This document shows, piece by piece, positions 1-20,000 of a DNA stretch of 20,000 bases (its first letter is position 1; every line of letters starts with the position of its first letter). A model generated the notes under the pieces. It was not told the DNA's origin. It worked only from the letters and a program-made list of their open reading frames with translations, and did no database searches. The stretch covers positions 184,573 to 204,572 of the forward strand of contig CAZAIK010000001.1 of assembly GCA_964485195.1 (NCBI GenBank), read 5' to 3'. The DNA is from an uncultured Methanosarcinales archaeon. GTDB taxonomy: Archaea > Nanobdellota > Nanobdellia > Woesearchaeales > CAIVOO01. The translations under genes were made by a program, and so were the position numbers.

Positions 1-3000
1 TGTCCTGCTGGGTTATTTTCAGTGTTTCACCCTCAAGGTTGAATGTCTGTCCGTCCTGGTCTGTTATGCTGATGTCTGCAATCACGTTGTGCTTTTCGTT
101 CAGCACCATAGCTGAAAAGTTAATGCCTGCGTCGCGCCTCATATACTCATTTGCTATGGTGAAGTTCTGCACTATGGGGGCTTCTGTGTCCCGCACGAAG
201 TAGAATATGTCAGGAGAGCCCTTTGAGACAAATGTTTCGTCTGCAAAGACTTTAATGGGCATTATTTTGAGGTGATAGTCGCCGTCCTCAAATGATGGAA
301 TCTGCATGGTGCACCTGAAATTGTCAAAGCTTCCCGTCCTGGCGCACTCAACAGTCCCGTTTCCCACAGGAACGTCCAGCTCTGCCCTGCCTATCTCCAC
401 TATGGAAGTGGTGAATTCTTCTTCCTCCACATAGCTTGCCCCCACTATGGGTATTCCGTTGACGAAATGATACTTGGTGTCGTTGGCTATGAAAACATCG
501 TTCAGTATGGTGAAAGTAGGAATCCTCGGAAGCTTTGAGTCAACTGTCAAGTTCCAAGCGTGATTGACAAAGTTGTTTGCCTTGTCGCCCGCCTTCATCT
601 TTATCAGGTAATTGCCGTCCTGGTCTGCCTCAAAATTGTAGGAGATGCTATAAGAAGCTGTAACTCCTGCATTTTCATCAAATTCAAAGGATTTTGTGGT
701 TATGTTTATCTTGTCATTTTTTACGCGCGCCCCGTTGATGGTGAGGTTTATGTTGTCCTTTCTCAGGCCAGAGCCCTTTTCCAGCACAGTCATTGTTATC
801 CTGTCTATCTTCTTCAGCCTGCCCTGACTGACTTCAGGCTCTAATCCTGTGATGTTAGGAGGGACTGCGTCCACAATTACGTCCAGCTTGTTGGTGGGAA
901 CTCCCAGGTTGCCTAGTTCATCATACTGTATTAGCTGGGCTGTGTGCATTTCATACCTTGCGTTTGGGTTTATGGGTATGGACATGTTAAACCTGTCCGG
1001 CTTGATGTGCATATTGCTGAATATCATTTGCTCTCCCTGCCCCACCTCTTCTTCAAGCGGTATGTCAAGGGTTATTACTGTTCCCTGGCCTTCCACAAAC
1101 TGCACATCATTTACATTGTATGCCTCCTTGTAATGGCCGTATTCCTTCCTGTGATGGCCTCCGAATCTGACATAAGTTTCTCCGAGCGTGTTGATCCTTG
1201 TAACCTCATCTCCTGGTATTAATACCTGGCTTTCCCCTTTCCTTGCCCTGGCTCCTGCTTCCAGGTTGGTTATTTCTGCGTATTGCTCTAGCGAAAGCTG
1301 CTGGTATTCAGCTACAAGAGAATCATCTGCAAACAGTTGCAGCTTAACCCCTGGTTCAGATGTGTGGCCTGTGAGGTAAGCCCTGCCTTCCCTTGCGCCC
1401 ACATAATACCTGTCCTCTTTCTCGTCGTAATGAAGGGGATATCCTAAAATGTCGTAGTTTTCCCCTAAACTGTTCTGCTCGTTGGTGATGGGCGGGTCAA
1501 ATGCTGGGGGCTTCAAAGGACCTACCTGGTCTATTATCACAAACACGTTGTCTTCTCCCATATTGCCTGCTGCGTCTCTTGCCCTCACAGACAATAATCC
1601 TTGATTGTTAAGAAAGAGCAGTGCTGAAACATTAACGTCGGCCCTGAAGCTTCCGTCACTCTGTATTTGCGTCTTTTGCGCCTGCTCCACCCCATTGATT
1701 GCGAAAGACACCTCTCCGCTAAGTGCTGAGGTTGAGGAATTGTCAATTATTACCAAGTTGGAGAAGGAATCATTTCTGGTTAAGTTCATATACCCCTCCT
1801 GTGCAATTCTTTCAAAAGTGCCGTAGGTTAATCCGTTTATTATAATCTCTGCACTTGCTCCCTGCGCATTGATGGTCACATTTACAGGGGGCCCTGCAGT
1901 GAAGGATTCTGTGCCCAAGACCTGTCCTGCCTGACCATACCTTATCAGGTCATCATCAAAGTCAATCTGCACAAAGTCGTAGAAGTTTTCAGAGCTGTAG
2001 TCAAAGATTATTTCTGCAAAGTCCTGAGCATTCACCTCTGCATCAAGCAGGAAGTCCCTGAAATAAACAGGGAGGAATCCTCCGCGGTCAGCCCAGTAAG
2101 CAGGGTTCTGCACAATACCTTCAACTGAGATTGTTTCGCCGGGAACTCTGCAAGCTGGCACCCCTCCTGGATTTGTGCACTTGCCTGACAAGCCCGTGAT
2201 GGTAATTCTTGGGGAGGACACATCCACCTTTATCTGCTCGCATTCTGTATCTCCTGCATTACCTCCCCTGTCCATTCCGTTAAAGCACAATGTTTGCGTC
2301 TGGTTAATGGAAAGCTGGACCTCTGTTCCATTAACCTCTCCCTCCGAGGATTCTGCAATGACGGGCTGGGGAGTGCATTGTGACTGCAATGCCGTGCAGT
2401 AATTTAACACTTCACAGCCGAACTCGCCTATTGGATAATTAGGCACTGGGTCTATGGCGGGCGTGGGAGGGTCAACGCACTTCAGCAGTATGCTGGCCTG
2501 GTTTTTCCACCTGGAAAGGTTATACTCCTTCTCTACAATTCTTTCCCCTGCCTCAAATATCTTTATTTCAGGCGCAAGATTGTCAACAGTGAACCTTATC
2601 CCTGCAACCTCGCTGCTTGTGAGATTCCCTGTCTCCACAAGCCTGCACCTCACAAGATACATCTTTGCAATCGCGTCTTCCACTATTGAAACTGGCGAGG
2701 AGTGGAGTTTGCCGTTGGTCTGCTCAAAGGTAACCATTTCGTCAAAGCTTATGCCCTGCAGTGTGGTGAATGCAAACTTGCCGTTTGCGTCCAGAGGCAC
2801 GTCCATATATCTGCAGGCGGCGTCTGCCCTTGTCCTTATTGAAATTTCAGAAACATCCTCTTTCTTGACAGTGGTGTTTGGCTGACCGTCATAAATCATG
2901 TCCTCTGTGTCCACCACTATCAGCTGTTCCTCTGAAATTTTGTTTCCAACCCAGTCTGTGCAGTTGTACTGGTATGTGTAAACTCCTGAAAGCACGTCAA

Positions 3001-6000
3001 AGGAGTCTGAGAATGATTTCCCTATCCTTCCCTGGACTCCTGCCTCTCCTGCGACAATGCTTCCTGAATCATCATAAATGTTCGCAGTGCAGTTCAGGTA
3101 TTCTGTTGAGTTTATTGTTGTTCTTAGCAAGGCATTGGCCTTTTCATAATAGTAGGAGAATGTTACAGGAGGGGGTACAAAGTCTATGTATATGTTGAAT
3201 GATTTCACGACTTCAAGGTTGTCTGCATCATCCCTTGAATAGAAGAACACTGTATAGTTCTTATCACTGGCAGGCAAGCCTGCCCAGGAGATAAACCCGT
3301 TTTGGGCGGACAGGTTGGGCCTTGTATATGCCATAGGACGGCCTTCAATCACCTCTGCTATCTGGAAGAAGGTTTCTGCATTGGGACTTATGAAGCTCCT
3401 GTCCTGGTCATCCCATACTGTGACAGGAAAGTTTATTGAATTGGCAGCAGTGGAGTGAATGACTGAAGTGAATGGGGGGCTCATGTCTGACTGGTTCCTG
3501 TCCGGCCTGTAATTGTTGTCAGCGTCCTTAAAGCACCTGTCCCTGTAATTGTAGGAAAGCTCAGGGCTTGTGCCGAACCTGCAAAGACCGAACTCCAGCA
3601 GGTCATCGCTTTCCTGAAGAATCTCATTATTGCCTGACTGGCTTACTGCCACAGATACATTCTGCGTTGGGGCGCACTGCTCGCTGTTCTTTCCGTAGCT
3701 GGCGCAGCTTCTGAACTCCTTGGCTGCGCACTCCCTGTTTGAAAAATAGCAGTAATGATCAGGTACCTCATCATCATCAGGATTCCCCCCGTAAAGGTCG
3801 CAGATTTCCTCGTCGCAGGTTCCAAACAGGTTGTTGAACTTATCCGGCTGGTTGCACCTGCTGCAGTCCCAGTAGGCAGGGTTTTTGGGCATGCAAACTC
3901 CAAGGCTTAGGTCTCCTGAATAAGGCCTCCACGCGCATTCCTCCTCCCCGCCAAAGCCGCAGGTGTTGGCCTGGCAGGTCTCCTGTGAAAGATAACCGTA
4001 ACAGCTGTTTATATTGCTGCACTCATAATACCTGCTCACCACGGTATTTGCATAATCCTTATAGCAGTATGCATATCGTTGAAGGTCAGAGATTATTGGT
4101 ATGTCCGCGCACATTACCCTTTCAGCCTGGCCACCTTCAAGCAGCAGCCTTAAAGTTCCCATTATTGAGAACATTCCAAGAGGAGTGTTGCATTCCACAG
4201 AGCAGTTTATCCTGCTCACATATCTTGTGCTGGTCCCGTGCTGCTTGCAATACTCATTAAGGTTTGCGGGCTCTATTTCAACTATTGAATTTGTTTCGTC
4301 GCATTCTGAGCGAACATTGTTATGGCAGAATTCATCAGTCTGCAGGTTGAAGCACTGCTCGGCCCCTGTGTAAACCGATGCCGGCTCAGAAGCCTTTTCC
4401 TGCACAAAAGGATTGTTGAAATATGAGTGTATCTCATAGGTGTAAAATGCTTCAGGCCTGACATTTTCATCAACAAACACATTTGTGTCAGGGTCTCTCA
4501 AGTTGGTAATGGGCTTTGTGTTCTCGCAATCCTCACCTTCGCACCTGTAAACATAGTAACCCACACTGGGGCATCTGTTTTCAAATTCAAGAACAGTTTT
4601 GTTCCCGTCCATTCCCAAAGTTAATATTACGGGAGGGGCTATGTCAGTGAAGCATTCTTCTGTGAACATTGTAATGTTTTGCTCAAAATCATTGGTGAGA
4701 GCGGGAATCAGCCTAGTTTCCTTTTTATACCCTGTTTTTGTTGCGCTGAGGGTGTGCGTTACCAGTATGGGAACATCGCTGATTACATAATTCCCGTTTG
4801 AGCCTGTCCTGGAAAAATGGGTGCTTTCCAGCCCCTGAATATACATAAAAACATCCTCTATGGGAATTCCTTCGCTGTCCTCCACCTTTCCGTAAATGCT
4901 GACACCTTCTATTTTTTCAAGCACAAATGTTTCTGTGGTGTCCAGTGAGAAGGATTTTGTCCTTTCCTCAGAGGAATACCCCTGCTTGGAAACCCTGATT
5001 ATGTACGTCACGTCTTTGTTCTTCTCTACTGTCACAGTGCCGTCACTTCCTGTTGTGTATTCCTCTCCTGTGGCAATCCCGAACTGCCTTATGAAAACAA
5101 CCGCGTTTTGCAATGGCGCTCCATCCTGGTCTGTCACGTTGACAGTAAGGTTAAATTTTTCTTCTGTTGCTATCTGCACCGTGAAATCATAGGTTGTTGT
5201 TTCATTCTCAATTACATTTACTGTTGCTTCTGTGGCGAGATAAGGTGAGGGAGGGCTTATTGTAACGTCCAAATCTCCGATGGGAATGTCTTCAATTTCA
5301 TAGAAACCATCGGGGCCTGTCGTGGCTGTTTTTCCTGCCACGCTTATTATTGTATCAGGCACGGGACTGCCTGTTGCATTAGTCACTGTTCCGTTGATGG
5401 AGCCAGTCCTTAGGATGGGGAGGGTGATTGTAACAAGTACGTCCTGGGTTAATGGGAAAAATGTTGAATTTGAGGCGTCGCCAAGCACTGCATTAACAAG
5501 GTAATACCTTTGGATGCTGCTTGGATGCAGTGTTGGCAAATTTCCCATATCTGCAATGCCGTTTTCATTGGTGGTTTGGGAAGTTGTGTCTGCAGTTACA
5601 GTTGCGCCTGACAAGGCATTTCCGTCCACGTCCAGGACCTGCGCCTGAAGATTGGCTGTTGGCAGGGGGTCCAGCTGAAGATTTGCGCCTGTTACGTCAG
5701 AATTTACATCAACAGTTGTGAGGCCTTCATAATAACTCTCGTGCCAGCCTCTCAAGGTGTAGCTGCCCTGAATCAGGCCGCTGGAGGAATAATCCCCATT
5801 GGAATCTGTTGAATAGGCAGAGCCCCCTATCATCACCTGAACATTTGGGATGGGAGTGTCTGTTGAGCTGTCAGTTATGGTTCCTGAAACTGAATAAAGG
5901 TCAGGCAGTTGCGCTGGAGGAGGGAAAGTCTCATTGTTGCACTCTGCAGAGGTTATTGAAGTGTTGAAAACCAAGAGCTGCTCTCCTGCACTTTCACTTT

Positions 6001-6409
6001 CATTCACGGCCTGGTAAAGAGGTAAAAATCTGGGAGTGTCTGCTATCCCGTCAGAAGATGTTGAGTCAGAATAGTAAGCGCAGCCTTCCTCGCACCTGCT
6101 GTACCCAGAGCAGGATTTCGTGACAAAGGATTCGTCAGGGCATAACAGGGGGGATTCCAGTCCTGATGTGCAGCTGTCAACACAGCAGGTGGGTTCTGGA
6201 AAGCAGAATCCTGAGTCTGCGCAGGCCTGGCCTTCCAGGAATCTTGTTTCAAGGCATTCCTCATCATCCCCGCAGCAGTCTGCTGCAGAGCTGTCATCGC
6301 AGAAGTTCGCGCTTCCTGTGTTCAGGCAGCAGTTCTGGGCTATTGCGAAGGAGGGGAGAAGCAGTATTATTGCTAAAAGTGTTATGATTATCGCTCTCTT
6401 TTTTCCCAT
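1..6409 (-). CDS. Giant secreted multidomain surface protein, >2136 aa, 3' end outside the window. Signal peptide, Cys-rich N-terminus, 5 carboxypeptidase-regulatory-like repeats, FN3-like domain, Cys-rich region and many Ig-like (DxxPP-delimited) repeats.
   Basis: Manual minus-strand translation from ATG at 6409 (MGKKRAIIITLLAIILLLPSFAIAQNCCLNTG...) stays open to position 2 (...ETLKITQQD). It is missing from the ORF track, presumably because no stop lies in the window. Sec-type signal with AIA|Q cleavage. Repeats include YSVSGTITDSSTDTPIPNVQV..STDSNGDY, GSINGTVTNATGSPVP..TTGPDGFY and VSIYGKVEDSEGIPIE..RTGSNGNY. Ig-like linkers are DMSPP, DFVPP, DNLAP, DVSSP, DAVPP and DTEAP, with DAAGN/DRGGN/DELGN motifs. 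An alternative in-frame GTG lies at 6418. Confidence 0.92.
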   Translation of the reverse strand, partial: MGKKRAIIITLLAIILLLPSFAIAQNCCLNTGSANFCDDSSAADCCGDDEECLETRFLEGQACADSGFCFPEPTCCVDSCTSGLESPLLCPDESFVTKSCSGYSRCEEGCAYYSDSTSSDGIADTPRFLPLYQAVNESESAGEQLLVFNTSITSAECNNETFPPPAQLPDLYSVSGTITDSSTDTPIPNVQVMIGGSAYSTDSNGDYSSSGLIQGSYTLRGWHESYYEGLTTVDVNSDVTGANLQLDPLPTANLQAQVLDVDGNALSGATVTADTTSQTTNENGIADMGNLPTLHPSSIQRYYLVNAVLGDASNSTFFPLTQDVLVTITLPILRTGSINGTVTNATGSPVPDTIISVAGKTATTGPDGFYEIEDIPIGDLDVTISPPSPYLATEATVNVIENETTTYDFTVQIATEEKFNLTVNVTDQDGAPLQNAVVFIRQFGIATGEEYTTGSDGTVTVEKNKDVTYIIRVSKQGYSSEERTKSFSLDTTETFVLEKIEGVSIYGKVEDSEGIPIEDVFMYIQGLESTHFSRTGSNGNYVISDVPILVTHTLSATKTGYKKETRLIPALTNDFEQNITMFTEECFTDIAPPVILTLGMDGNKTVLEFENRCPSVGYYVYRCEGEDCENTKPITNLRDPDTNVFVDENVRPEAFYTYEIHSYFNNPFVQEKASEPASVYTGAEQCFNLQTDEFCHNNVRSECDETNSIVEIEPANLNEYCKQHGTSTRYVSRINCSVECNTPLGMFSIMGTLRLLLEGGQAERVMCADIPIISDLQRYAYCYKDYANTVVSRYYECSNINSCYGYLSQETCQANTCGFGGEEECAWRPYSGDLSLGVCMPKNPAYWDCSRCNQPDKFNNLFGTCDEEICDLYGGNPDDDEVPDHYCYFSNRECAAKEFRSCASYGKNSEQCAPTQNVSVAVSQSGNNEILQESDDLLEFGLCRFGTSPELSYNYRDRCFKDADNNYRPDRNQSDMSPPFTSVIHSTAANSINFPVTVWDDQDRSFISPNAETFFQIAEVIEGRPMAYTRPNLSAQNGFISWAGLPASDKNYTVFFYSRDDADNLEVVKSFNIYIDFVPPPVTFSYYYEKANALLRTTINSTEYLNCTANIYDDSGSIVAGEAGVQGRIGKSFSDSFDVLSGVYTYQYNCTDWVGNKISEEQLIVVDTEDMIYDGQPNTTVKKEDVSEISIRTRADAACRYMDVPLDANGKFAFTTLQGISFDEMVTFEQTNGKLHSSPVSIVEDAIAKMYLVRCRLVETGNLTSSEVAGIRFTVDNLAPEIKIFEAGERIVEKEYNLSRWKNQASILLKCVDPPTPAIDPVPNYPIGEFGCEVLNYCTALQSQCTPQPVIAESSEGEVNGTEVQLSINQTQTLCFNGMDRGGNAGDTECEQIKVDVSSPRITITGLSGKCTNPGGVPACRVPGETISVEGIVQNPAYWADRGGFLPVYFRDFLLDAEVNAQDFAEIIFDYSSENFYDFVQIDFDDDLIRYGQAGQVLGTESFTAGPPVNVTINAQGASAEIIINGLTYGTFERIAQEGYMNLTRNDSFSNLVIIDNSSTSALSGEVSFAINGVEQAQKTQIQSDGSFRADVNVSALLFLNNQGLLSVRARDAAGNMGEDNVFVIIDQVGPLKPPAFDPPITNEQNSLGENYDILGYPLHYDEKEDRYYVGAREGRAYLTGHTSEPGVKLQLFADDSLVAEYQQLSLEQYAEITNLEAGARARKGESQVLIPGDEVTRINTLGETYVRFGGHHRKEYGHYKEAYNVNDVQFVEGQGTVITLDIPLEEEVGQGEQMIFSNMHIKPDRFNMSIPINPNARYEMHTAQLIQYDELGNLGVPTNKLDVIVDAVPPNITGLEPEVSQGRLKKIDRITMTVLEKGSGLRKDNINLTINGARVKNDKINITTKSFEFDENAGVTASYSISYNFEADQDGNYLIKMKAGDKANNFVNHAWNLTVDSKLPRIPTFTILNDVFIANDTKYHFVNGIPIVGASYVEEEEFTTSIVEIGRAELDVPVGNGTVECARTGSFDNFRCTMQIPSFEDGDYHLKIMPIKVFADETFVSKGSPDIFYFVRDTEAPIVQNFTIANEYMRRDAGINFSAMVLNEKHNVIADISITDQDGQTFNLEGETLKITQQD

Positions 6410-6439
6410 CAGCCACACCAGTTTTTTATTGCGATTTTG

Positions 6440-6447: not shown

Positions 6448-6523
6448 TTATTCCCTGACTTAATAAATCTTTATTTATAAACCTTTTGTTATCTGTATAT
6501 ATTTATTAATGGTATTAAGAAAC

Positions 6524-9500
6524 TCATTCGCCAGGGTCGTCCCCGCTGCAACCCGTGCCTGTCCATTTCCAGCCGCAAAGCTCGCAGCCGTGCTGGCTGT
6601 TGTCAGGGTCTGTGTTTTGCAAGGCGCATCCATCAAGAATTTCGTTTCCGTTGGTATCCACTTTTGTGACATTCCTGAACTTCTTCTCATCAGGACCAAG
6701 GCAGTCTTCTGATAATTCATCGTTGACAGTGGCTTCCTCAATAACACAGGCACCTGTGTCGCAGCTGGAAGTGTTGCCGGGAATGCAAACCCTTATACCC
6801 TCTTCAAGGGTGATTTCTGCTTCTGTTTCAAAGACCGCGCTGCAGCTTTTCTCCATAGTGTAATTTGCTTCAGGGTACTTCTCATAATCATGATGGAAAG
6901 AGTATTCAATAAGCACATCCTGATCATCTGTTGAGCACTTATCTGTCAGCTCTATACGTGGCCTTGATAAGCAGCTATCCCTTCCTGCAGATGGATTATC
7001 AGGATAACAATATCCTGCCTGAACAACTGTTGTCTGCTGTATTTTATAATCATCCTCTGTGCCTGTATAGTCAGGGTCTTTAGTGGGAACATAACCTTCT
7101 TCNNNNNNNNNNNNNNNNNNNNNNNNNNNNNNNNNNNNNNNNNNNNNNNNNNNNNNNNNNNNNNNNNNNNNNNNNNNNNNNNNNNNNNNNNNNNNNNNNN
7201 NNCACTGTCAAACCCTCCCTTGTTATTTTCATAAAGATATTGCTCAAAGGTGGTGCCTGTGAATGTTATGCAGGAAGTTGTGCCTGAATAAAACTGCGCT
7301 GTCACGTTTGCGCCCTGGCATCTTGCAAGCTGCTCTCCTGCTTTATTCCAGTCTGACAAGTCCTCACAGGCAGTTATGTTGGTGTATGCCATTTCTGCAT
7401 TGTCGTCGCATATTATTCCGCTGTCACCACTGCAGGTGGAGTTGAATATTCTCAAGATGATGTCATTTGTCAGATTGTATAAGTTGGGCTTTGGCTTGTT
7501 TGTGGATGAATAACTTGTGGTTACGGGCGGAATTATGCTTACAGTTTCATACTGGTTTGCCTGCTCTGTGAAGTTTATGAAGGATGCATTGTAAAAACCG
7601 TACTCTGCATACCTGTAGCACTCCCTTGAAGATTCAGCATATTTCCAGGTTTCCGGCTCGCCGTCAGGATTTCCGGCACAGCAGGTGTGGTTTCCGAAGA
7701 AAGGGTCAGGATATGAATTGTAAGGGGATTCCTGCCCCTGGTAGTCAATGTTGTGGAAGGGGAATGAGGGGTATTGTGAAGGTATTTCCGGAACAGGGTG
7801 TGCTATTTCCCTTGCCTCAGGAATGTTCTGACGGTGAGGAATGCACTTAAATGCCTCTGCCTCCTTGCTGGCAGAGCCTGTTGTTGGCGGGGAGCCTAAA
7901 GTAGTGGAGCCCCTTTCCACGAGAAGTTCAAAAGTTTTCTTCCCTATTGTGCTGAAATAACCCACATTTCCTGGAAGATACCTGTCTGGGTTGCTTCTGT
8001 GCCCATCATAATCCCTGGGAAGCACTACGGAATCGTTGGGGCCTATGTAAATGGTTTCTGATACTCCATCCTCAATTGCCTGCCATTGATAGTTTGTGCT
8101 TCCTGGATTGAAATAGTCAATAACATCTGCATCAAGGCAAAGAGGGTCTTCAACAGAGATTATGCTCCTGTTGTCTATGTCGTCATAGCACCTGGTGAAG
8201 TTTATCAGGACATTGAACACGTCGTCAACAAGAATCCTCACAATCTGGCAGTCCTTCGTTTCAGGATTGTTGTCCTGAAAGGCGCAGACAGTGACATTGT
8301 GGTAGCCAATGTCTGAATGATTTGTGGTGTAATTTGCAGACTGATTGGTCAGGGTGAAAAGCTCGGAGTTTGTCCATATGTGAGGCTCCTCATTGTATTG
8401 CACCATCACGCAGTCCTGAGGATTGTCCCTTGTGCATCCTTGAGCTTCATCAAAATATGCATCCTCTGTCTCCTTCCACCCTGAATAGCTGTAGTTAAGC
8501 TTGTCCCCGTCGGGGTCGTAGGCCTGGGGGAATATCTGTATCATCTCCCCTTCCACATTGTACAGGTCATAGTCCCTGTTAATAACTGCCTGGTATTCTG
8601 CCGGGCTGTCATATCCCGGAATGTAATCAAGCACAGGGGGCCTGTCCTTGATGGCAAAGTTGAAAACAAAGGGGCCTGCCCTCAGGAAATGGTTTTCGTC
8701 CAGGTCCCTTATGGTTATGATCATATCGTTATCATTATTCTTCGCAGTCACGACTGAAAAGCCGGGCAGGGCATACTCCTCATTCCTGGACCAGTCACTG
8801 CTGTCATTGATGTCAAAGTCCAGTTCCGCGAATTCCTGGTAAGCGAGCCAGGTTGCAAAAAGATAGACATACTTGTAGCGCACAGGGCTGAAATAGTTGA
8901 ACTTCAAGATTCTTATCACGGGCTCAAGGTCCTGTATTTTTATGTTCAGGGGGTAGTCTGCCGTGACTTCTATTCCGTTGAAGCCGAAGGTTGTTGTCAC
9001 GTTAATTTCCCCGACAGTGATGTTAAAGGTCCTGAAGGCTGTGAGGTTGCTTTCTGAAACATTCAGGATTCCTGCAGAGCAGTTTTTGGTTTTGTTGGCT
9101 ATCATTTCCTCAACATATTCCTGTATGCTGTTCAAGCCTCGGAAGCTCATACTTTCTTCTATCCTTGTTCCCTGAACTGTAACATTAAAATCTTTTGACA
9201 TTCCCCTGGTGCACGGTTCGTTAGCGTATCTGCAAAGTGCAGGAAAATTTTTTCCGCCAAGCTCGGTCTCGTTCAGGTCCAGAAAAACAGAGATATCATT
9301 AAGGTAGGCGCAATATGCAGGCTCTATCAGGTGCTGCTGCATTTCATCATTGCAGGGCCAGGCATCGGGTTCAGGATTATTCTGAGGGTAATCAATGAAA
9401 TATTTCACTTCAGTGCCGCCCAAGGTTAATGTTGTTTCTCCTAAAAGGATAGGGCCTCCTCCCTGCTTCCCGCTGATGTTAAGGGCCTGCTTTGTTGCCT

Positions 9501-11994: not shown

Positions 11995-11995
11995 G

Positions 11996-12490
11996 TTATT
12001 CGCACTGGATTATCACTGAATCCCCTCCTCCTTCTGCCACAAAATTAATCGTGGTCCTGGTTATGTTGATGCAGTAAACAAAAGGCTCGCATTCCACCTT
12101 TATTTTTCCAGTGTCAAATGCAAGGAATTTCTTGCCCAGAAGGAATGCATTGTTTGGGGACTTGCTTTCAACACTGTCCCAGATGAGTGGGTAGCCTGAC
12201 TGGAGAGAGCTGTTCCTGATTTCCTCGTTTGTTACATTAAGGTGCAAGTCCACAAAACACAGCTTTTCATAGCCTTCTGCCACGGGATAGCTGAAGCTTG
12301 CGGTTGTTCCGTAATTGATTGCCAGCTTGCTGATGTCTGCCTTCATCCTCAGCTGGAACTTTTCCATAATGGCCTCCTCATTGGCCTCCTGAATGCTGGT
12401 TATGCCCCTGTAGCCGAAGTAAACCACCAGGATTATTATCAGCGCGGAGATGGTGTAAATGAATATTGAGCCTATGGTTGCCTTTTTCAT
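11996..12490 (-). CDS. Small pilin-like protein (164 aa), paralog of the N-terminal domain of the 11960 gene
   Basis: MKKA|TIGSIFIYTISALIIILVVYFGY gives a short basic leader plus a hydrophobic helix. It shares YG..SY, (L/I)CF.D, DS.ES.SPNN.FLLG, EP...C.N.TR.T.N and GGG...CE with the neighbouring gene. Its ATG overlaps the upstream stop (TAATG). Confidence 0.85.
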   Translation of the reverse strand: MKKATIGSIFIYTISALIIILVVYFGYRGITSIQEANEEAIMEKFQLRMKADISKLAINYGTTASFSYPVAEGYEKLCFVDLHLNVTNEEIRNSSLQSGYPLIWDSVESKSPNNAFLLGKKFLAFDTGKIKVECEPFVYCINITRTTINFVAEGGGDSVIIQCE

Positions 12491-15400
12491 TATGTTTGGG
12501 TCACGCTGAATGTCCTGGAATCAGTGACTGTATTGTCCCCTGCATCTGTGGCTTCTGCTGTGAGTGTGTAAGTTTCTCCAGCGTTGAGTGTTGCTGAGCC
12601 CTGAAGCACTGCGGGGGTGATGTTGGAATATGTTTGTTCCTTGTCAGCAACACTTGCCCCTGCGGAATCTGTAAGCTCATACATTATGTGCTGAACACCC
12701 ACATTGTCTGTTACTTCCACGCTAATGGTGGCAGTCGTGGAAGTGCCTCCTATTGTTATGTCGCTGTCAGGCAATATCTCTTCTATGACCGGGTCGGTAA
12801 TGTCTATCACGAACATTTGTGGCTCGCTGAAGTTCACCCTCCCCATTGTGTCTGCTGAGAAGAACACTATCTGATGGTAGCCTTCATCTGAAAATGAGAC
12901 AGAGACAGAGCCTGACTGGCTTGCTCCTGTGCAGTCTATGCGGGACCAGTCCTTGTCAAAGTTAATCAGCACCTGCTGTTCCACATCGCTTACGGATTTG
13001 TCTGTGAAGTATCCGCAGTATGAAAGGTTGTCCTGAACTGCATAGTCAAGTGTTAGAGTGTTTCCAGAAACTTCGAGACTTGTAATCTCTGTTGTTGGAG
13101 GGGTGGCATCTGGATAATAGGCACTTAACTGTATTGGCTTTAATTCATTGTTCTCCCATATTCCTGAAGAGGCTCCTTTTGTGTCTGTTGCATTTATGGA
13201 AATGTTGTACTCCCCTATGACTTGGTACTCGTGGAATTGTATGTTAGTGCCATTTACTTCAAAAAAGTCTGTGTTCGCACAATCATAACTGGTTATGGTT
13301 CCGTCTCCCCAGTCAAGCCGGCAGGTGCTTAAATTGTCATAATCGCTTGCATTGAAATATATTACAAATGAGCCGTTATAAACCTGAATAATTCCGTTGG
13401 TGAATGTAATATACAGTCCCAGCGAGATGTTGGCTGCAGGCCTCCTGTTAAGCATAAAGCCCTGCGTGACTTCGTCAAGAATTGCATTTATGTCAGTAAC
13501 ATTAAACTTAAAAACATATTCCTCGTTGGCAGGAGGCATTTCGGTAACTGGGTTGTCTGTGTAAATCCGGTGGGAGGTGTTCCACAAGAATGTGGCGTTG
13601 TACTCCTGCCATTTTGTAATGTTTGTCCAGTCCCTGATATCCCTGGTAATATAAGGAACAGATGGTGAAATCAACGAGTAGTTGAACGTAAAGGTATCTG
13701 GCTCTTCTGTGTCCTCGACTGTCAAATTCACTTCAAGGATTTCTCCTTCATTCACGAATTCAGCGAAAGGCTCCACCAGGGAAAGTTCAGGGGGTACCCT
13801 GTCCTTGGTGACGTTTATCTTTAATTGTACTGAATCTGTGGTTTCGCCGTCATCATCCTCTCCGTAACACTCATAATTGTCAATGTCATCTATATCTGAA
13901 GATGTTATGAAGAGCTTCCCTTCTGAAAATGTTATTTGCGTAGTCTGTACGTCAGTGAATGTGTCAATGAATGTGCATTGTATTGTAAGGTTTTCAGGGG
14001 CGTCGTCAATGTCACTCACGTAATCTTCCACCTTCAGCTCGCGGGTTGAGCCCCAGCCCATGATCAGTTCTTCAGGGAAGAGTATGTTGCCCTGCGGGTC
14101 TTTCTTCCATTCAGGAGCGTCATTGACATTGGTGATGGTTATGTTCAGTTTTTGTGTTGCTGTTTTTTGGTCATTATAACTGCCGGGCAAATCCCCTGTG
14201 TCACCTACTGTAATCCTTGCGCGGAATGTTCCTGTGTAATCCTCTATGTAGTCTGAACAGCTGAAAACCTGGTTGGAGATTCCGCAGCCAAACCCTGCCA
14301 ATAATGCTTCGTCTCCATCAGTGGCTGGTTCAGATTCAAATATTAAGCTTGCATCTGCTGTTTCCACATCATAAACATAGTCAGCCAAGTTAACAGACCA
14401 GGAAGATTCTGGTGCCTGGTCTTCAGGAGATTCTTGTTCAGGGATTGCTGTGAATTCCGGCGGAGTGTTCACAGGATGTACAGTTATTTCCAGTATTTTC
14501 TGCAAAGTGCCTGCTTCAGTGTTTATGTCTATTGTAAGTTTTCCCACTCCGTTCTGGTTAACGGCAGGGGTGCAGTTGATTTCAAAATCATCAATTTTAT
14601 TGCATCCAAGCCAGGCATCTGTCTCCGCTCCGACAATGCTTATGCTTTCGGCAAACCCGCTGTAATCTGATGACAAGTCAATTAAAAGGCTTGTCGGCTC
14701 TAATGTAGTGTTTTCCATCATATTATAATTTTCTGTGATTGGGGGAAGGTTTGTGGTTGTAACATCGTCTGTGCTTATCTTGAAGTCGCTGGTCAAAATT
14801 CCTGCCACCACCTTGTAATTCCCTCCTTCCTCAAAGGTGTGGGTTATTACCTTTGCATTTCCCGGAGGAACCCCGCTTATGGAAACTGCAGTGCCGTCAT
14901 CGAAGTCAACAGATGTTGCTATTATCTCCTCTTCTTCAGCAGGGTAAACAGTGACAAGATAACTTGCCGGCTCCCCTGCGGCTGTCGCGGCAGGGCCTTG
15001 TATTCCCACAGAGGATTCTGCCCCTTCTGGAGTGTAAGTTCCCTGCAGTCTCGTGTTGACTGTCAAGTCCTTCCAGTAAATGATGTTTTCTGCGTAAAGG
15101 TTCTGCCAGACTTCCGTGCTGTTAATCCTCACATTGCAGGATGCTGTGCTTCCAATGTCCTCCAGTCTTAATGCTTCTATTGTCTCGTTGCTGTGGCAGA
15201 GATTTTCCTCAACATTCTTGTAACCAACTGTCATTATGTTTCGCTGAAGTCCTCCAGTTCCTGCCTTTCTTTCCACCGCGCCCCTTATCTCCTTGTTGCT
15301 TGCCATTGAAATGTATAGTTTTCTCAGGTCCGCAATGTTTTCAAGGAACTGTTCAGTTCCCCTTATTGTCTCAACCTCTCCCACCAGGAAAAGCCTTGCC

Positions 15401-18400
15401 CACCTGAATATCGTCCGCAGGGGATGCCTTATCATCATATTGAACACGTCAGAGGTTGTGACTGTGTTGCTAATGTCAAACGCATCTCTTGAATAAATGA
15501 CTGTTTGGGTCTTGTTGTCCACCCATATGTTGGCATTTCCTGCTTCCACAAAATCATAATCATCGCAGCCTGTATAGTTCTTGGTTATGCTTGACTGCTG
15601 TATGGCGCCGTCGCAGTAGATGTTGTGGGCTCCCCCTGCTGAGCCTTTTGCTTCTGGGAACAGTCTCAGCAGGGAATACTCTGTTTCTGTGTTTAAAGGA
15701 ATGTTCGTGCTTGTTCCTATGTAGACTTCCTCATTGCCATCAAGGTCCACCAATGACAATGCGCAGAAGTTGTTTGCGCAGGGAAGCCCGTCAGTTCCGG
15801 GGCAGCCTTCTGAAGGCCCTTCTATCAGCTCCCTGACTGTCTTCTCGCTCAGCTCAATGTCCTTGTAATCCACCTGAGCCAGCACTTCATCAAAATCGTC
15901 GCAATAAATGGTGCCTCTTTTGAAATCGTAGCCTGTTATTGCTGCCCTTTTCTCCTCAAGAATGTCCAGGAGCTGCCTTGCCACCAGCTTTGTCCTGCTG
16001 GACCAGTTGCCTTTCTCGCAATAGTCATCCCCTTCGAAATATCCTGTGTCAACACATCCTTTTTCAGGCCCAAGATAGCACTGGTCAATCTGAGGGCAAT
16101 AGCCCTTGTCTGTGTTTTCAGGATTCCATTTCAAAACTGCCGGCCTCCAATTTCCGTTTATGCACCTGTAATACTCATTATTTCCATAAACCCTTCCATA
16201 TTTCTTTGAGCTGTTGAAAAAATAGGGAAGGCCTTCCTGCTCCTCATACTGAAAGATGTCTGCCTGGCTTGGAACGCAGGATTTCGGGGCTGAGACATTG
16301 CCGTAAAAGCACCAGTTTTCAGGACAGCAGGCTTTTGCATTTGCATCAAAAGGAATGTGCACAGAGAAATTTATAGTTTCCCCAGGGATTGCAGAGGTGT
16401 TCTTCCAAACCTTGTCAAAGTCGCAATACCAGCTTCCCTTCACATCACACTCTCCTTCCACACTGTCTAATGCGTCAGAATAATCCAAACTGTAAGGCCT
16501 TCCTGTTGAGCTTCCACCATATTCTAACTCAGCTTTAATAGCATCTGCCTTATCCTTACTTTTGCAGGTGTAAAACAGGCCATTGAAATATAGTAAAGAA
16601 GCGCTTCCGGGTCCTCCTGCAGGATTAGCATAGCTGAGGTTCATCACGCTGTTGTTTCTTACTGTGAATCCCTTCACGCACCCGTGCAAGGTGTCTGCAT
16701 ATGATTCTGCAACAACACCGCTCTCCTGAAGCCGCAGAAGGCTGGTACTTGCCAAGTCATCACCGCAGCAGGCATTCCCTGTCCATCCAAATCCTGGGGT
16801 GTTCTCGCAGACACCCTTCCCCACTGGGAATCCTGAAACATCAGAATCATTCTGGTCCATCTCGCTGACCCAATATCCGACATCTTCCTGAGGGTATTTT
16901 GCACAATATCTCCTATACTGGTTGTTTACGTTCCCTCCCGGGCCAAGATGTATCCTGTCAATTGCCAATGCGTTTCTCAATCTGAGAGTCCCGAAAACCT
17001 CATGAGTCATAAGCCTTTGCGGGACATCTTCCTTGTCGGCATAAAGTACCAATATCCTTGTGGAGTTGCTGGGAATTATTTCTCCATCCTCTACTGGTAT
17101 CACAACCCTCATCCACTTGCCTGCCTGAATCTGTCCTGTAACATAATCATCAACGTAGCCATCAAACAAGACTTTCCCGGGTATGTCTTCGTTAAGATAG
17201 TCCTGGAGGGATGTTTCTGTGAACTGGCTTGAAGGGGCGTAATCTGAGACCAAGAGTCTTAGATACTTTTGTTCAGGTGCGATAGCATATGCAATATAAA
17301 ATTCAAGGTTCAGTGTGTCTGTCCAGTTATATAATGGGTTGTCAGCATTTTCAATGATAAAAGGGTAATGATAGTAATCCTGTGGTATCTGGAGAGGCAT
17401 TCCAATTGCCAGGGCGTAGTTGATATTGCTGTTGTCCTTGGGAAATTCAAAAATGTCATAGAGGGGGTTGCCTGCTCTCCTGGTTTGTGAACCCAGATCC
17501 TCATTCTTGCACAGCCCCAGGCTGTAGCCGCAGCATTCAGTGTATTCCGATATTCCATCCATATCTGAGCAGATAAATCTCTGGGCGAGCCATCCTGCCT
17601 GGTCAAGGTCGGGTATTTCGCCTGCACATCTTAAAGTTCCGGTGCCGTCATCCCTGCAAATTCCTGAAATGCAGTCATCGTCTGTGCTGCATTTCTGTCC
17701 ATCCCAGCATTTTGCACATCCATCTCCGCAGTCAACGTCTGATTCCCCTTCATCTGTAAGTTCGTTATAGCAATGGGCAGGTGCTTCAGAAGGTTGGATG
17801 TCCCATAAGGAAATCCCGGGTTCAAACTGGTTATCTGGTATTAAGGCGGTGTTAGGACCAACGCCGTAATTTGAGACCTCTCCTTCAAGCTCTTCGGGCG
17901 TGATTAGTGTGGGTATTCCTATGGGGGCTTCATAACTCAAAGTTCTAAGATTCTGTGTGAAGCTTATGTCAGAAGCACTTTCATAAGCAAGGCTCGCGCT
18001 TCCCGAGGCGTTGCAGGCGTGCCATCCCAAGGAGTTGGAGATGACATTGAATCCGTTTATTGGTTTTATTTTGAAATCTTCTTCAGCTGGATTCAGCCAG
18101 GACCATTGTGTGTTATTATGATAGCAAAACCAAGGTGTATCCTCGCCTGTCGTATCCCTGTGAATTTTCCCGTAATCAACAAAAGCTCTGCTCTCGTGAA
18201 TGAGGTGGACATCATCAATCCATAACCTGGACTTGCCCACATCCTCTGGATTTGGGAGAGAGGGCACGACAATCTCAAAATATCTGAGCTGTTGTGGGCC
18301 TGGTAAGGTCATAGGGATTTGCACGTGCTTCCAGTCATAGGTTCCTTCGGGGATGCTTGTCGATACTGGAGTGGCGGTCTTATTCAACAGAGCATAACTT

Positions 18401-19518
18401 CCTGCTGGCACATTCCTTCCCTTGACCCAGAAGGACACTCTGAAGTTGCCGGCAGGAATTGTTGGCATGATTAGTGCTGATTGCCCGTTTTGCCTTCCTT
18501 GATGAACGAAATCCTGTCTCAAGAGGGAATTACTCTCATTGCTGGGCACTATCAGGAAGCTCTGCTCCCCTGAATGTGCAACATCCTTAACACGCCTGCA
18601 CCAGCTGCTGTACTGGCAGCTCTCTCCTGATGTTTCCCAGACCTGAAGGTTCTGTTCATTTGTTTTTGCCTCAAATCCAGGGTCTATGAAGTCATCGTCA
18701 CCGCAGCACTTGTAATCGCCAACTATTGTTCCCTTGCAGTCTGCCAGCTTTTTGTTCAGTTCATAAACAAGGCATTCTGTGGTGCTGTTGAACCCGCCCT
18801 TGACGTTTCTTGACTCACAGTCCAGCCCTGTCCTCCTGCACCCGTAAGGATTGTCGCAGGTGTCGTGAAAGTTCCAGAATCCCGGGGTGTAGTCTGAAGA
18901 TGAGGCGTTCAGAAGAACAAAAGGGTCTTCCACAAAGCGTATTAGCGAAACATCAGGGGTTTCCTCTGCAGGAAGTATGTTGAAGTAAGACCACATCTTG
19001 TCAAGGTCCAGTATTAAGTCGTCCTGGGTTGTGTTGCCAAAAAAAATTGTTTCTGATTGTAGAGTGCAAGAATCATAGCATTCACCGTCGCAATCATACT
19101 CACCATAAACAGGGTCATTGAAGTAGTCATAAGAGAGTATGCAATCTGTTGCTGTGCAGCTATCCTCCTCGTAGCGTGTACCATCACAATCCCAGTAGTA
19201 ATTATCTTCTGATGGTATCTCAAAATTCAGGTCATCCCTCTCATAATAAATGTCCCCAAGCCTTTTCCCTGACTGGTCTAATGGAGACACAGTAACCTGG
19301 AATCCGCACCCAGAGGTGCCTCCTCTTAATGCCTCTGCAAGCTGGTCCAGGTCGCCTATTTCAAAGCCGTCTTCAGGGGAAAGCTTTCCTGTGGAGTAAT
19401 TGCACACCACATTCACGGGAAGGTTATGTGCTGATAAAACAGAAGAGGCAGCCAATATGGAGGTGAGGGTTACTAAAAACAGGAATACAGCTATTTTTGT
19501 CGCGCTTACATTCGCCAC
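12490..19518 (-). CDS. Giant secreted protein (2342 aa): signal peptide, Cys-rich regions, two carbohydrate-binding-module-like domains, PKD, cadherin-like and Ig-like domains
   Basis: Uninterrupted 7-kb ORF with a GTG start and the signal peptide KIAVFLFLVTLTSILAASSVLSA. CBM-like motifs are FIDPGFE..AHSGEQS..FRVSFWVKG..GTYDWKHV..LWIDDVHL and NWTDTLNLEFYI..GKWMRVVIPV..IDRIHL. PKD motifs are VDFDDGT..HTFEEGGNY and LDWGDGT..HEYQVIGEY. Cadherin-like linkers are VNTPP and VNDAP. No C-terminal TM anchor is visible. Confidence 0.93.
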   Translation of the reverse strand: MANVSATKIAVFLFLVTLTSILAASSVLSAHNLPVNVVCNYSTGKLSPEDGFEIGDLDQLAEALRGGTSGCGFQVTVSPLDQSGKRLGDIYYERDDLNFEIPSEDNYYWDCDGTRYEEDSCTATDCILSYDYFNDPVYGEYDCDGECYDSCTLQSETIFFGNTTQDDLILDLDKMWSYFNILPAEETPDVSLIRFVEDPFVLLNASSSDYTPGFWNFHDTCDNPYGCRRTGLDCESRNVKGGFNSTTECLVYELNKKLADCKGTIVGDYKCCGDDDFIDPGFEAKTNEQNLQVWETSGESCQYSSWCRRVKDVAHSGEQSFLIVPSNESNSLLRQDFVHQGRQNGQSALIMPTIPAGNFRVSFWVKGRNVPAGSYALLNKTATPVSTSIPEGTYDWKHVQIPMTLPGPQQLRYFEIVVPSLPNPEDVGKSRLWIDDVHLIHESRAFVDYGKIHRDTTGEDTPWFCYHNNTQWSWLNPAEEDFKIKPINGFNVISNSLGWHACNASGSASLAYESASDISFTQNLRTLSYEAPIGIPTLITPEELEGEVSNYGVGPNTALIPDNQFEPGISLWDIQPSEAPAHCYNELTDEGESDVDCGDGCAKCWDGQKCSTDDDCISGICRDDGTGTLRCAGEIPDLDQAGWLAQRFICSDMDGISEYTECCGYSLGLCKNEDLGSQTRRAGNPLYDIFEFPKDNSNINYALAIGMPLQIPQDYYHYPFIIENADNPLYNWTDTLNLEFYIAYAIAPEQKYLRLLVSDYAPSSQFTETSLQDYLNEDIPGKVLFDGYVDDYVTGQIQAGKWMRVVIPVEDGEIIPSNSTRILVLYADKEDVPQRLMTHEVFGTLRLRNALAIDRIHLGPGGNVNNQYRRYCAKYPQEDVGYWVSEMDQNDSDVSGFPVGKGVCENTPGFGWTGNACCGDDLASTSLLRLQESGVVAESYADTLHGCVKGFTVRNNSVMNLSYANPAGGPGSASLLYFNGLFYTCKSKDKADAIKAELEYGGSSTGRPYSLDYSDALDSVEGECDVKGSWYCDFDKVWKNTSAIPGETINFSVHIPFDANAKACCPENWCFYGNVSAPKSCVPSQADIFQYEEQEGLPYFFNSSKKYGRVYGNNEYYRCINGNWRPAVLKWNPENTDKGYCPQIDQCYLGPEKGCVDTGYFEGDDYCEKGNWSSRTKLVARQLLDILEEKRAAITGYDFKRGTIYCDDFDEVLAQVDYKDIELSEKTVRELIEGPSEGCPGTDGLPCANNFCALSLVDLDGNEEVYIGTSTNIPLNTETEYSLLRLFPEAKGSAGGAHNIYCDGAIQQSSITKNYTGCDDYDFVEAGNANIWVDNKTQTVIYSRDAFDISNTVTTSDVFNMMIRHPLRTIFRWARLFLVGEVETIRGTEQFLENIADLRKLYISMASNKEIRGAVERKAGTGGLQRNIMTVGYKNVEENLCHSNETIEALRLEDIGSTASCNVRINSTEVWQNLYAENIIYWKDLTVNTRLQGTYTPEGAESSVGIQGPAATAAGEPASYLVTVYPAEEEEIIATSVDFDDGTAVSISGVPPGNAKVITHTFEEGGNYKVVAGILTSDFKISTDDVTTTNLPPITENYNMMENTTLEPTSLLIDLSSDYSGFAESISIVGAETDAWLGCNKIDDFEINCTPAVNQNGVGKLTIDINTEAGTLQKILEITVHPVNTPPEFTAIPEQESPEDQAPESSWSVNLADYVYDVETADASLIFESEPATDGDEALLAGFGCGISNQVFSCSDYIEDYTGTFRARITVGDTGDLPGSYNDQKTATQKLNITITNVNDAPEWKKDPQGNILFPEELIMGWGSTRELKVEDYVSDIDDAPENLTIQCTFIDTFTDVQTTQITFSEGKLFITSSDIDDIDNYECYGEDDDGETTDSVQLKINVTKDRVPPELSLVEPFAEFVNEGEILEVNLTVEDTEEPDTFTFNYSLISPSVPYITRDIRDWTNITKWQEYNATFLWNTSHRIYTDNPVTEMPPANEEYVFKFNVTDINAILDEVTQGFMLNRRPAANISLGLYITFTNGIIQVYNGSFVIYFNASDYDNLSTCRLDWGDGTITSYDCANTDFFEVNGTNIQFHEYQVIGEYNISINATDTKGASSGIWENNELKPIQLSAYYPDATPPTTEITSLEVSGNTLTLDYAVQDNLSYCGYFTDKSVSDVEQQVLINFDKDWSRIDCTGASQSGSVSVSFSDEGYHQIVFFSADTMGRVNFSEPQMFVIDITDPVIEEILPDSDITIGGTSTTATISVEVTDNVGVQHIMYELTDSAGASVADKEQTYSNITPAVLQGSATLNAGETYTLTAEATDAGDNTVTDSRTFSVTQT

Positions 19519-19543
19519 TTTTAAAAAACCAAAGAGGTTTGCC

Positions 19544-19560
19544 TTTATAAAAGTTTCGCA
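19544..19560 (-). promoter_or_regulatory. Putative BRE + TATA promoter of the giant-protein operon
   Basis: The minus strand reads TGCGAAAC-TTTTATAAA: a purine-rich BRE-like element followed by TATA 26-33 nt upstream of GTG 19518. Confidence 0.65.
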
Positions 19561-19594
19561 CTCAATTTAAAGCCCGGGCAGTCTTTTTTGTGCT

Positions 19595-19630
19595 CAAAAA
19601 GTTTTTAAGATAGGATAAAAACAGGAGGGT
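19595..19630 (+). promoter_or_regulatory. Putative BRE/TATA (CAAAAAG-TTTTTAAG) and Shine-Dalgarno (GGAGG 19624-19628) for the peptidase gene
   Basis: TTTTTAAG at 19602-19609 is preceded by an A-rich tract. GGAGG lies immediately before ATG 19631, with unusually short spacing. Confidence 0.5.
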
Positions 19631-20000
19631 ATGCTGAAGATTTATTACTTTCTGCCTGTAATCATTTTTTTGGGAGTCATAACATCTTATGAGGATGTAA
19701 AGAAGGGAAAAATCAGGAACAAGTGGCTTCTTTTGTCACTTGGCCTGGCATTAACTCTTCATCTCATTCTTTTCCTGCAGGGCCTTTCAGGAAATCAGGA
19801 AATGCTGCTCTTGCTTTCCAATTTTGCAATTTCAATAATATTTGCCTTTGCCCTGTGGAACTTCAATTTCTGGAGCGCAGGTGACGGCAAGCTGTTCATA
19901 ACATACTCTGCCCTGATTCCGGTGGGATTTTACTCAAGCCCCTTTGTCAGCTTTTTCCCCTCATTTAATTTGTTTATTAATGTTATAGTGCCTTTTTTTG
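19631..20000 (+). CDS. Prepilin/prearchaellin peptidase, family A24 (FlaK/PibD/EppA-like GxGD aspartyl protease), partial
   Basis: Manual translation: MLKIYYFLPVIIFLGVITSYEDVKKGKIRNKWLLLSLGLALTLHLILFLQGLSGNQEMLLLLSNFAISIIFAFALWNFNFWSAGDGKLFITYSALIPVGFYSSPFVSFFPSFNLFINVIVPF. It has multiple TM helices, the first catalytic Asp22 (SYED..K..I.N) and Asp85 in SAGDGKL. The frame is open to the window end and is not in the ORF track. Confidence 0.88.
   Translation, partial: MLKIYYFLPVIIFLGVITSYEDVKKGKIRNKWLLLSLGLALTLHLILFLQGLSGNQEMLLLLSNFAISIIFAFALWNFNFWSAGDGKLFITYSALIPVGFYSSPFVSFFPSFNLFINVIVPFF

Follow-up and report, generated by a model that had tools for sequence, protein, structure and literature searches.

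Archaeal type IV filaments of 'system 1' are exemplified by the Epd pili of Methanococcus maripaludis, which has two A24-family enzymes, FlaK and EppA. According to the accessible part of PMC3875500, the substrates of EppA carry leaders of 5-13 residues that end in Gly and are followed by Gln at position +1 and Glu at position +5. In the available text of a 2026 survey of DPANN archaea (PMC13705601), the ATPase and platform genes are adjacent, the pilin genes are scattered, and many genomes carry 'system 1' (Epd-like) pilins. Large proteins with lytic transglycosylase (LT) domains from these archaea were inferred by Castelle et al. 2021 to be aimed at bacterial walls (PMC8204110, in the portion available). 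The subject of this work is a gene cluster for pilin-like proteins, giant secreted proteins and murein-active enzymes, together with the A24-family peptidase gene that it faces. The cluster begins in a stretch of 20,000 nucleotides, referred to as the window, of contig CAZAIK010000001.1 from an archaeon of the Woesearchaeales. Judged from its distribution among genomes, it belongs to the core gene content of Woesearchaeota-type DPANN archaea. We give slightly better than even chances to the reading that it encodes a type IV filament-like surface apparatus that attacks bacterial walls and is assembled in trans.

The locus shares with the Epd system a multi-pilin operon with short leaders, in which a small residue is followed by Gln at +1, and the presence of a second A24 paralogue besides the general one (PMC3875500, in its accessible part). 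In both cases an ATPase and two platform genes are found at a separate locus (PMC3875500 and PMC13705601, as far as their available text goes). It differs from the Epd system in that no DUF361/Class_IIIsignal match is found here, in that ~12 pilin-like families stand against a few, and in that the cluster contains giant Sec-exported proteins and peptidoglycan hydrolases. Its A24 peptidase, unlike EppA, travels mainly with Hxs genes and is not always linked to the pilin-like genes.

The proteins of the cluster are designated here by the length of their frames (p164, p666, p925 and others) or as giants (giantA, giantE). The modular pilins PilB and PilC of Streptococcus sanguinis consist of a pilin module with a grafted function; comparably, p666 joins a p164-like module to an Ig-like region and the SLT protein of the cluster joins a leader to an enzyme. 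Bacterial minor-pilin/PilY1 tip complexes set minor pilins beside a large adhesin, as is also the case here (PMC8179133, excerpts). The proteins described here are archaeal and unrelated to those in sequence, and the giants are neither pilins nor PilY1-like by sequence; in the excerpts of PMC8179133, 'transglycosylase' and 'hydrolase' have 0 occurrences. The LT-domain proteins come from the same organisms, archaea without murein, and led to the same inference. The accessible text on them (PMC8204110) has 0 occurrences of pili or pilins, whereas the SLT protein of this locus has ~400 aa and a pilin-like leader and lies in a 20-gene pilin-like cluster.

Conservation and gene content of the cluster

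The source genome (G000) is a 1.13-Mb assembly of 32 contigs rated 99.5% complete, and the window is the final 20 kb of its contig C1 (contigs C1, C2, C3, C9, C15 and C25 all belong to G000). Presence was counted in 61 relatives, among them G001 of the same genus, and in a phylum sample of 201 genomes. Every long gene of the window except the A24 peptidase lies on the minus strand. These genes are the start, or promoter-proximal third, of a one-strand cluster of ~20 genes and ~40 kb (C1:164122-204090), whose downstream reading frames mostly overlap or nearly abut. The cluster holds at least 12 pilin-like families. Their leaders are short and basic, end in G/A/S and are usually followed by Gln at +1, and each family also has a hydrophobic helix. 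The cluster further encodes three giant or large Sec-exported proteins with immunoglobulin (Ig)-like repeats, which are rich in Cys and in sequons and have no anchor, and one more with a C-terminal anchor.

In G001 the cluster is complete and gap-free, with the peptidase followed by 20 genes in the same order over ~40 kb. The core order (giantA, p925, giantE, the 1006-aa protein, p160, p345, p163, p180, p256, p300, then, after further genes, p173 and finally the hydrolases) recurs in six relatives (G001, G003, G024, G029, G013 and G028), which together represent five families, and G028 retains even the flanking gene. Orthologues of giantA lie at the same position in 6 relatives, and those of giantE, of 1786-5002 aa, likewise keep their position in relatives. 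The p164/p160 family is present in 56 of the 61 relatives and p345 in 54 of 61; in the phylum sample p345 is present in 178 of the 201 genomes, some of which belong to other orders of the class. By hand comparison, p345 lies within 2 kb of a p160-family match and on the same strand in 43 of the 54. The proteins p164 and p666 are found only in the window's own family and are therefore a local duplication of the core gene p160, a paralogue of p164 with 40% identity. Related public loci are labelled Candidatus Woesearchaeota, Nanoarchaeota and Nanoarchaeia, and some automatic labels are obviously different. A gene of ~335 aa past the hydrolase end (C1:163086-164096) is syntenic in G001, G003 and G028, with 63-71% identity within the family and an E-value of 3e-99 in G028, which indicates that the whole island sits at a fixed chromosomal place.

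The original prediction, made from the window alone, had proposed that pilin-like and giant secreted proteins make up an attachment or host-recognition apparatus of a probable DPANN episymbiont, with a synteny search as its check. The linkage of both kinds of genes in the six relatives supports a conserved surface apparatus in which a Woesearchaeota-type (DPANN) archaeon unites the two. The two secreted Cys-rich proteins of more than 2100 aa that it named are frames of 2342 and 2453 aa, its three genes with leaders KKA|T, KKG|Q and KKG|Q are confirmed on the minus strand, and the A24 peptidase set head-to-head with them is matched by PF01478 on the plus strand. Its five-gene block holds for the genes seen but not for the extent, the three small genes of the window being a small part of the cluster. 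Two scaffold gaps of 100 N, which it left unmentioned, remove C-terminal portions of the 666-aa and 925-aa frames, and the contig end cuts the peptidase gene. The features are listed in Table 1.

Table 1. Positions of the features discussed. Plain ranges are window coordinates; ranges with a contig name are coordinates in the source genome.
Feature	Position	Strand	Evidence or remark
giantE, first 2139 of 2453 residues, Sec leader	1..6418	-	ORF 2-6418, open end; likely ATG 6409
Cys-rich C-terminal piece of p925, not a separate gene	6524..6916	-	130-aa ORF, Cys 6.9%
100-N scaffold gap	7103..7202		inside p925 gene
p925, leader MQKKG|Q, first 828 residues of ~1037-aa protein	7203..9687	-	ORF 6952-9729, likely ATG 9687
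100-N scaffold gap	9981..10080		interrupts p666, C-terminus lost
p666, modular pilin-like, with an Ig-like region behind the leader (MKKG|Q) and a p164-like module	10081..11960	-	ORF 9960-11960
p164, 164 aa, pilin-like, leader MKKA|T	11996..12490	-	start overlaps giantA stop
giantA, 2342 aa, Sec-type leader, 66 Cys, without C-terminal membrane anchor	12490..19518	-	ORF
Divergent intergenic region, 112 bp, A+T-rich TATA-like boxes toward both genes	19519..19630		read directly
A24-family (class III signal) peptidase, divergent, N-terminal 123 residues	19631..19999	+	PF01478 27.4 bits, cut-off 26.5
1006-aa Big_13 protein with C-terminal anchor	below window	-	first gene after giantE
Eleven small proteins of 160, 345, 163, 180, 256, 300, 265, 283, 303, 173 and 195 aa	below window	-	N-terminal hydrophobic anchors
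SLT lytic transglycosylase, ~400 aa, pilin-like leader	below window	-	second-to-last cluster gene; PF01464 58.7 bits, cut-off 21.3
1737-aa secreted Metallophos + GH3 (NagZ-like) + NAGPA protein	far end of cluster	-	domain search
p925-family/large-protein pair	C2:131424-137126		p925 paralogue at C2:136134
p925-family/large-protein pair	C2:138209-141206		p925 paralogue at C2:140451
p925-family/large-protein pair	C9:2889-10430		p925 paralogue at C9:8256
p925-family/large-protein pair	C9:13296-15361		p925 paralogue at C9:13296
p925-family/large-protein pair	C15:1-6246		p925 paralogue at C15:4303

Murein-active domains stand at the far end of the cluster in every case, although the set differs by genome: SLT with GH3/NAGPA in G000, SLT with Polysacc_deac_1/VanY/NAGPA in G001, SLT with Metallophos/NAGPA in G003, a leader-bearing Peptidase_M23 in G013, and a 929-aa SLT protein in G028. 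The catalytic Glu-Ser motif of family-1 lytic transglycosylases (SLT) is retained by all 4 sequences that were aligned. Mur ligase and penicillin-binding protein transpeptidase were both looked for in G000 and neither was found, so the substrate of the hydrolases, as far as gene content can tell, is likely foreign (bacterial) peptidoglycan.

The giants have 2.8-2.9% Cys, against 1.36% across all open reading frames (ORFs) of at least 200 aa, and about twice the background density of N-glycosylation sequons. The start codon of giantA is GTG. The protein giantE, which reaches its full 2453 aa when read onward into the contig, has a Cys-rich N-terminus beginning with CC, repeats of CarboxypepD_reg and no C-terminal anchor. 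These repeats (133 bits over 4 stretches) provide solid Ig-like content, and in giantA the PKD_4 and Ig-like families appear sub-threshold only. PKD_4 scores no more than 19.9 bits (cut-off 27), CBM_4_9 comes from the same-genus orthologue alone (25.0 bits, cut-off 25.9), and no cadherin family is found even at E<=1 in the domain search of the window proteins. Among the domains first assigned to the giants, Ig-like domains are thus retained, PKD and CBM domains remain weak or sub-threshold, and cadherin domains are lost. Sequons per 100 residues number 1.8-3.0 in the window genes (1-19518), with a background of 0.82, and are near zero in the hydrolases and most downstream pilin-like genes (C1:169332-180603). 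This contrast suggests that some of the apparatus is exposed and some of it buried.

Residues 1-157 of p666 are homologous to p164 (E 6.7e-23), and p666 is therefore read as a pilin-like module plus an added Ig-like part. This agrees with the enlarged minor pilins of the original prediction. The orthologue of p666 has 624 aa, and Big_3_3/PKD_4 match at E 0.07 only. The 130-aa frame below p925 aligns to residues 914-1034 of a p925 orthologue of 1037 aa (E 1e-23). Between giantA and the peptidase, TTTATAAA lies ~27-35 bp upstream of the giantA GTG start and TTTTTAAGATA ~20-29 bp upstream of the peptidase ATG; these TATA-like boxes presumably act as promoters.

Enlarged pilin-like proteins are paired with large proteins also elsewhere in the genome. 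Five paralogues of p925 share its leader and ~250 N-terminal residues, with the leader consensus K/R-[GS]-Q-[ILV]-T-x-F-I-I-[IV]-G, and each of them directly precedes, often with overlap, a large protein with a Sec leader. One pair on C9 consists of a p925-family protein of 247 aa, with 2 database relatives, and a neighbour of 436 aa. No docking domain shared by the partner proteins was detected by BLAST. The recurring pairs fit a role of enlarged pilin-like proteins in holding giant proteins. A search of sequencing runs for the stretch listed no RNA run and DNA runs of one study only. No paper that treats the cluster as one unit was found by full-text searches of the literature, and the supplementary tables of PMC13705601 may list its genes.

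Pilin-like features and the location of assembly genes

The pilin-like character of the small proteins is seen mainly in their N-termini, where a short basic leader ending in G/A/S is followed by ~20 hydrophobic residues. In alignment A1, which has 16 rows of the p164/p160 family, position -1 is A, G or S in 16/16 rows, position -2 is basic in 14/16 and position +1 is Gln in 11/16. The leaders of p925 read K/R/N-[GAS]-Q in 15/15 orthologues, with Q6 and F10 invariant. In p180 the invariant residues are Q5, E7 and G10, and in p163 they are K4, Q6 and E11. The leader is thus specific to each family, and the overall pattern is that described for the substrates of EppA (PMC3875500). A loose leader pattern, which is unspecific, also catches ordinary signal peptides and was used for an enrichment count only, matches 108 of 1151 ORFs genome-wide and 13 of the 22 listed ORFs in C1:169332-197062 (binomial ~1e-8, the genes of an operon not being independent). 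It is matched by 8 of the 11 small downstream proteins; p300, p173 and p303 are among the members without a match, and p300 has further hydrophobic segments.

The AlphaFold2 (AF2) model of p164, built from 16 sequences, has a predicted local distance difference test (pLDDT) score of 93.2 and a predicted template modelling (pTM) score of 0.79. It shows a helix of 56 residues (3-58) joined to a beta-rich domain with a conserved Cys pair, that is, a long N-terminal helix bearing a beta-rich head. The original prediction called for N-terminal domains that model as pilin folds; p164 models confidently as a long helix with a beta domain, and no pilin family or solved pilin fold was matched.

Some lower-scoring similarities are recorded as observations. 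A PilV row for p180 reaches 16.5 bits only. In VIA-align comparisons, residues 269-349 of p925 (window 8641-8883) align with the Thermus competence pilin 5g2f_A (Z 5.8, root-mean-square deviation 3.7, 70 aligned residues). All other rows near the top of that list are coiled coils, and the pilin row shares its score with chance rows. Unnamed Nanobdellota/Woesearchaeota families make up the nearest ESM Atlas clusters of p164 and p180, and the named rows PF04021 (0.82) and DUF7287 (0.84) are leads only.

Genes for filament assembly are encoded elsewhere. The matches to T2SSE and T2SSF all fall outside the window, on C2, on C3 and at C1:53244. An ATPase and two platform genes occupy C2:152162-156848, and a second ATPase/platform pair lies at C3:22854-27360. 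The window had been described as free of an assembly ATPase or TadC-like gene, which is correct. The suggested look for VirB11/TadC genes in the flanks found none beside the cluster in G000 or in five near-complete relatives, where no T2SSE gene was found near the cluster and the nearest is ~40 kb off. The C2 genes are part of a canonical pilus locus (C2:142944-156848), which encodes a 1752-aa protein, four or five RGVSPLIATVLL-type (GVSPLIATVLL) pilins, an ATPase of 613 aa and the two platform proteins. A canonical A24 peptidase is encoded ~13 kb upstream of this locus.

The A24 peptidase and the Hxs module

The peptidase of the window belongs to a divergent family. Its same-genus orthologue in G001 has 354 aa and scores 25.0 bits with PF01478, just under the cut-off. 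PF01478, the archaeal C-terminal domain PF06819 or both are found in many members of the family. D84 (in GD-x-K) and K86 are invariant in 7/7 sequences, and D22 is aligned in 6/7, being shifted by one column in G028. The two residues D22 and D84 align with a canonical A24 enzyme, and both catalytic Asp positions of the family, in the first transmembrane region and in the GxGD-type motif, are thus retained. G000 thus has two A24 paralogues, with the canonical one at C2:128866-129723. Full-length orthologues of the window's enzyme are found in 16 of 61 relatives, and the canonical enzyme (~280-320 aa, mostly 45-67 bits) in 57 of 61.

The neighbours of the peptidase were compared in 80 public loci, of which 56 have a full-length orthologue; among these 56, 41 have at least 2.5 kb of downstream DNA and 46 at least 3 kb upstream. 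HxsB follows the peptidase on the same strand in 27 of 41 loci and HxsD in 25 of 41, and an Hxs gene is found somewhere in 34 of 41; the peptidase faces giantA/p925-type genes in 11 of 46. In G001 the peptidase is followed by HxsD (TIGR03976, 44.3 bits) and HxsB (TIGR03978, 437 bits). Among the relatives scored, TIGR03978 gives 437 and 443 bits (cut-off 370), and TIGR03976 gives 55.3 bits in G028 (cut-off 50). His-Xaa-Ser repeats are often found at the end of the small ORF that follows HxsB, so that HxsB, HxsD and a His-Xaa-Ser repeat precursor occur in one operon in relatives, as in a His-Xaa-Ser (HXS) system. In G001 the peptidase, HxsD, HxsB and the precursor form a four-gene module on its contig C4 (L032:5408-8557). 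In the precursors a long N-terminal extension (consensus like ...EEGKISKESLLKxG) leads into a short hydrophobic segment, and the real cleavage site of the peptidase may lie here. No HxsB or HxsD was detected in G000 by tblastn, which gave only a distant radical-SAM match on C25; their absence from the assembly is explained by the contig end inside the peptidase gene.

The N-terminal domain of the peptidase is found with 30-46% identity also on records labelled Omnitrophota or Patescibacteria (L062, L064, L077-L080, L088, L090, L104, L114, L121 and L124), among runs of genes of ~300 aa and radical-SAM genes. In L064, L077, L078 and L088, HxsD and HxsB lie upstream of the A24 domain.

The bacterial system HxsD-HxsB-HxsC-HxsA was demonstrated in 2026 to block the entry of phage DNA (PMC13128918, in the part of its text available). 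The likeness to this antiphage system concerns only the neighbours of the peptidase, which are HxsD, HxsB and the precursor. An A24 peptidase is added here, and the words 'peptidase' and 'archaea' have 0 occurrences in the accessible text of PMC13128918. Among the best 25 families per protein, no HxsC model was found for the radical-SAM neighbours in G001. From these neighbourhoods, the A24 gene is probably first of all a member of an A24-HxsD-HxsB-HxsA radical-SAM module that abuts the cluster in part of the order. What appeared to be a dedicated prepilin peptidase would then count among the usual components of a His-Xaa-Ser radical-SAM module in archaea, which is a lead of its own.

The original prediction had proposed an EppA-like enzyme dedicated to the leaders of the cluster, encoded beside its substrates and co-regulated with them through the 112-bp intergenic region, and this model now appears unlikely. 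The head-to-head arrangement does occur in G000, G001, G024, G029, G013 and G028, which are six of the 16 relatives with the enzyme and span five families, and in the 11 of 46 public loci counted above; a local functional link may therefore exist. Two A24 paralogues in one genome recall FlaK and EppA of M. maripaludis, the leaders of the cluster have Gln at +1 as the substrates of EppA do, and contig breaks by giant genes mask some linkages, the peptidase being at a contig start in G003 and G002. However, the pilin-like families are found in 54-56 of the 61 relatives, and 40 of the 56 with the p160 family have no full-length orthologue of the Hxs-linked peptidase, whereas nearly every relative has the canonical enzyme. 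Its regular same-strand neighbours are HxsB and HxsD rather than giants, a His-Xaa-Ser repeat precursor often comes after HxsB, and related N-terminal domains are found in the radical-SAM clusters of the Omnitrophota/Patescibacteria-labelled records. Neither the dedication of the enzyme, as first stated, nor a constant EppA-like linkage to pilin genes is thus supported by the counts. The features first noticed were largely right. The earlier interpretation was right in kind, as a pilin-like surface apparatus for attachment or attack, too narrow in extent, and probably wrong on the peptidase.

Possible modes of action and significance

In the reading that we favour, a type IV filament-like apparatus assembled in trans, a class III signal peptidase would trim the leaders, and it would probably be the canonical A24 enzyme. 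From the trimmed subunits, an ATPase and a platform encoded elsewhere would build a fibre like a type IV filament, or else a short pseudopilus. Giant proteins, together with the enlarged modular subunits, would then bind a bacterial partner, whose wall would be opened by the hydrolases. The gene anatomy, the conservation, the leader motifs, the helix-plus-globule model, the hydrolase domains and the linkage statistics are observed; cleavage, filament formation, binding by the giants and the bacterial target are the parts of this reading that we infer. Several results weigh against it. The ATPase and platform genes are never in cis in the genomes examined, so that the link to a type IV machine is also drawn by inference. 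Searches of Pfam and NCBIfam at E<=0.01 assigned no pilin family (e.g. PF04021, PF07790) to any of the pilin-like proteins. Only chance rows came from solved structures when these were searched with profiles of alignments A1, A4, A5 and A6, and Foldseek searches of the PDB with the models of p164 and p925 gave no match at E<=0.001. The VIA-align lists are full of long helices and coiled coils aligned on the N-terminal helix (best Z 5.3 and 6.0), and the heads were hardly probed by them. The AF2 model of residues 1-420 of p925 is poor (pLDDT 65.2, with a helix at 3-74), and p164 and its two orthologues lack Gln at +1, having T, E and S instead. The globular part is therefore a candidate pilin fold only, and the proteins are called pilin-like here. 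The hydrolases could in principle serve another role.

The small proteins might instead be uncleaved signal-anchor proteins of a static envelope complex that holds the giants and hydrolases, with no filament and no type IV machine. The lack of matches to pilin families and solved pilin folds, the ATPase and platform genes outside the cluster, and the members p300, p173 and p303 outside the leader pattern, of which p300 has additional hydrophobic segments, would all agree with such a complex. The conserved small residue at -1, Gln at +1 and acidic residue at +3 or +6 would, however, be unexpected in a plain anchor. The p164 model has a 56-residue helix joined to a compact domain, and the layout matches the Epd-type separation of pilin operon and ATPase locus (PMC3875500 and PMC13705601, in their accessible parts). 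This arrangement is therefore regarded as improbable. Still less probable is a pseudopilus like that of type II secretion, in which the pilin-like set would form a short piston that pushes the giants, which lack anchors, and the hydrolases through the S-layer instead of a long adhesive fibre. At least 12 minor-pilin-like genes in a fixed order with no obvious abundant major pilin, giants without anchors, and an enzyme cargo that varies at one end of the cluster are what such a piston could have. The giants, however, have ordinary Sec leaders and there is no second membrane to cross, and one hydrolase and two large proteins carry a pilin-like leader themselves, for which display is a better fit than export. 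Archaea are also not known to have a type II secretion system, although no search aimed at it was made, and this is counted against the piston. More speculative again, and very doubtful in our view, is a cross-domain 'drill', in which the tip of the fibre, with pilin-fused peptidoglycan hydrolases and giant lectin-like proteins, would open the wall of a bacterial host. In that scheme the A24-HxsD-HxsB-HxsA module next to the cluster would be more than a neighbour: its product, a small His-rich subunit or plug modified by radical-SAM chemistry and processed by the A24 peptidase of the module, would aid or guard the contact site.

Few uncultivated archaea are as widespread as the Woesearchaeota and their relatives. 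For the question of how they make contact with other cells, and whether their partners are bacteria, the near-universal, single-copy cluster of ~20 genes, which encodes pilin-like subunits, giant proteins and murein-cutting enzymes, gives a concrete and testable set of genes.

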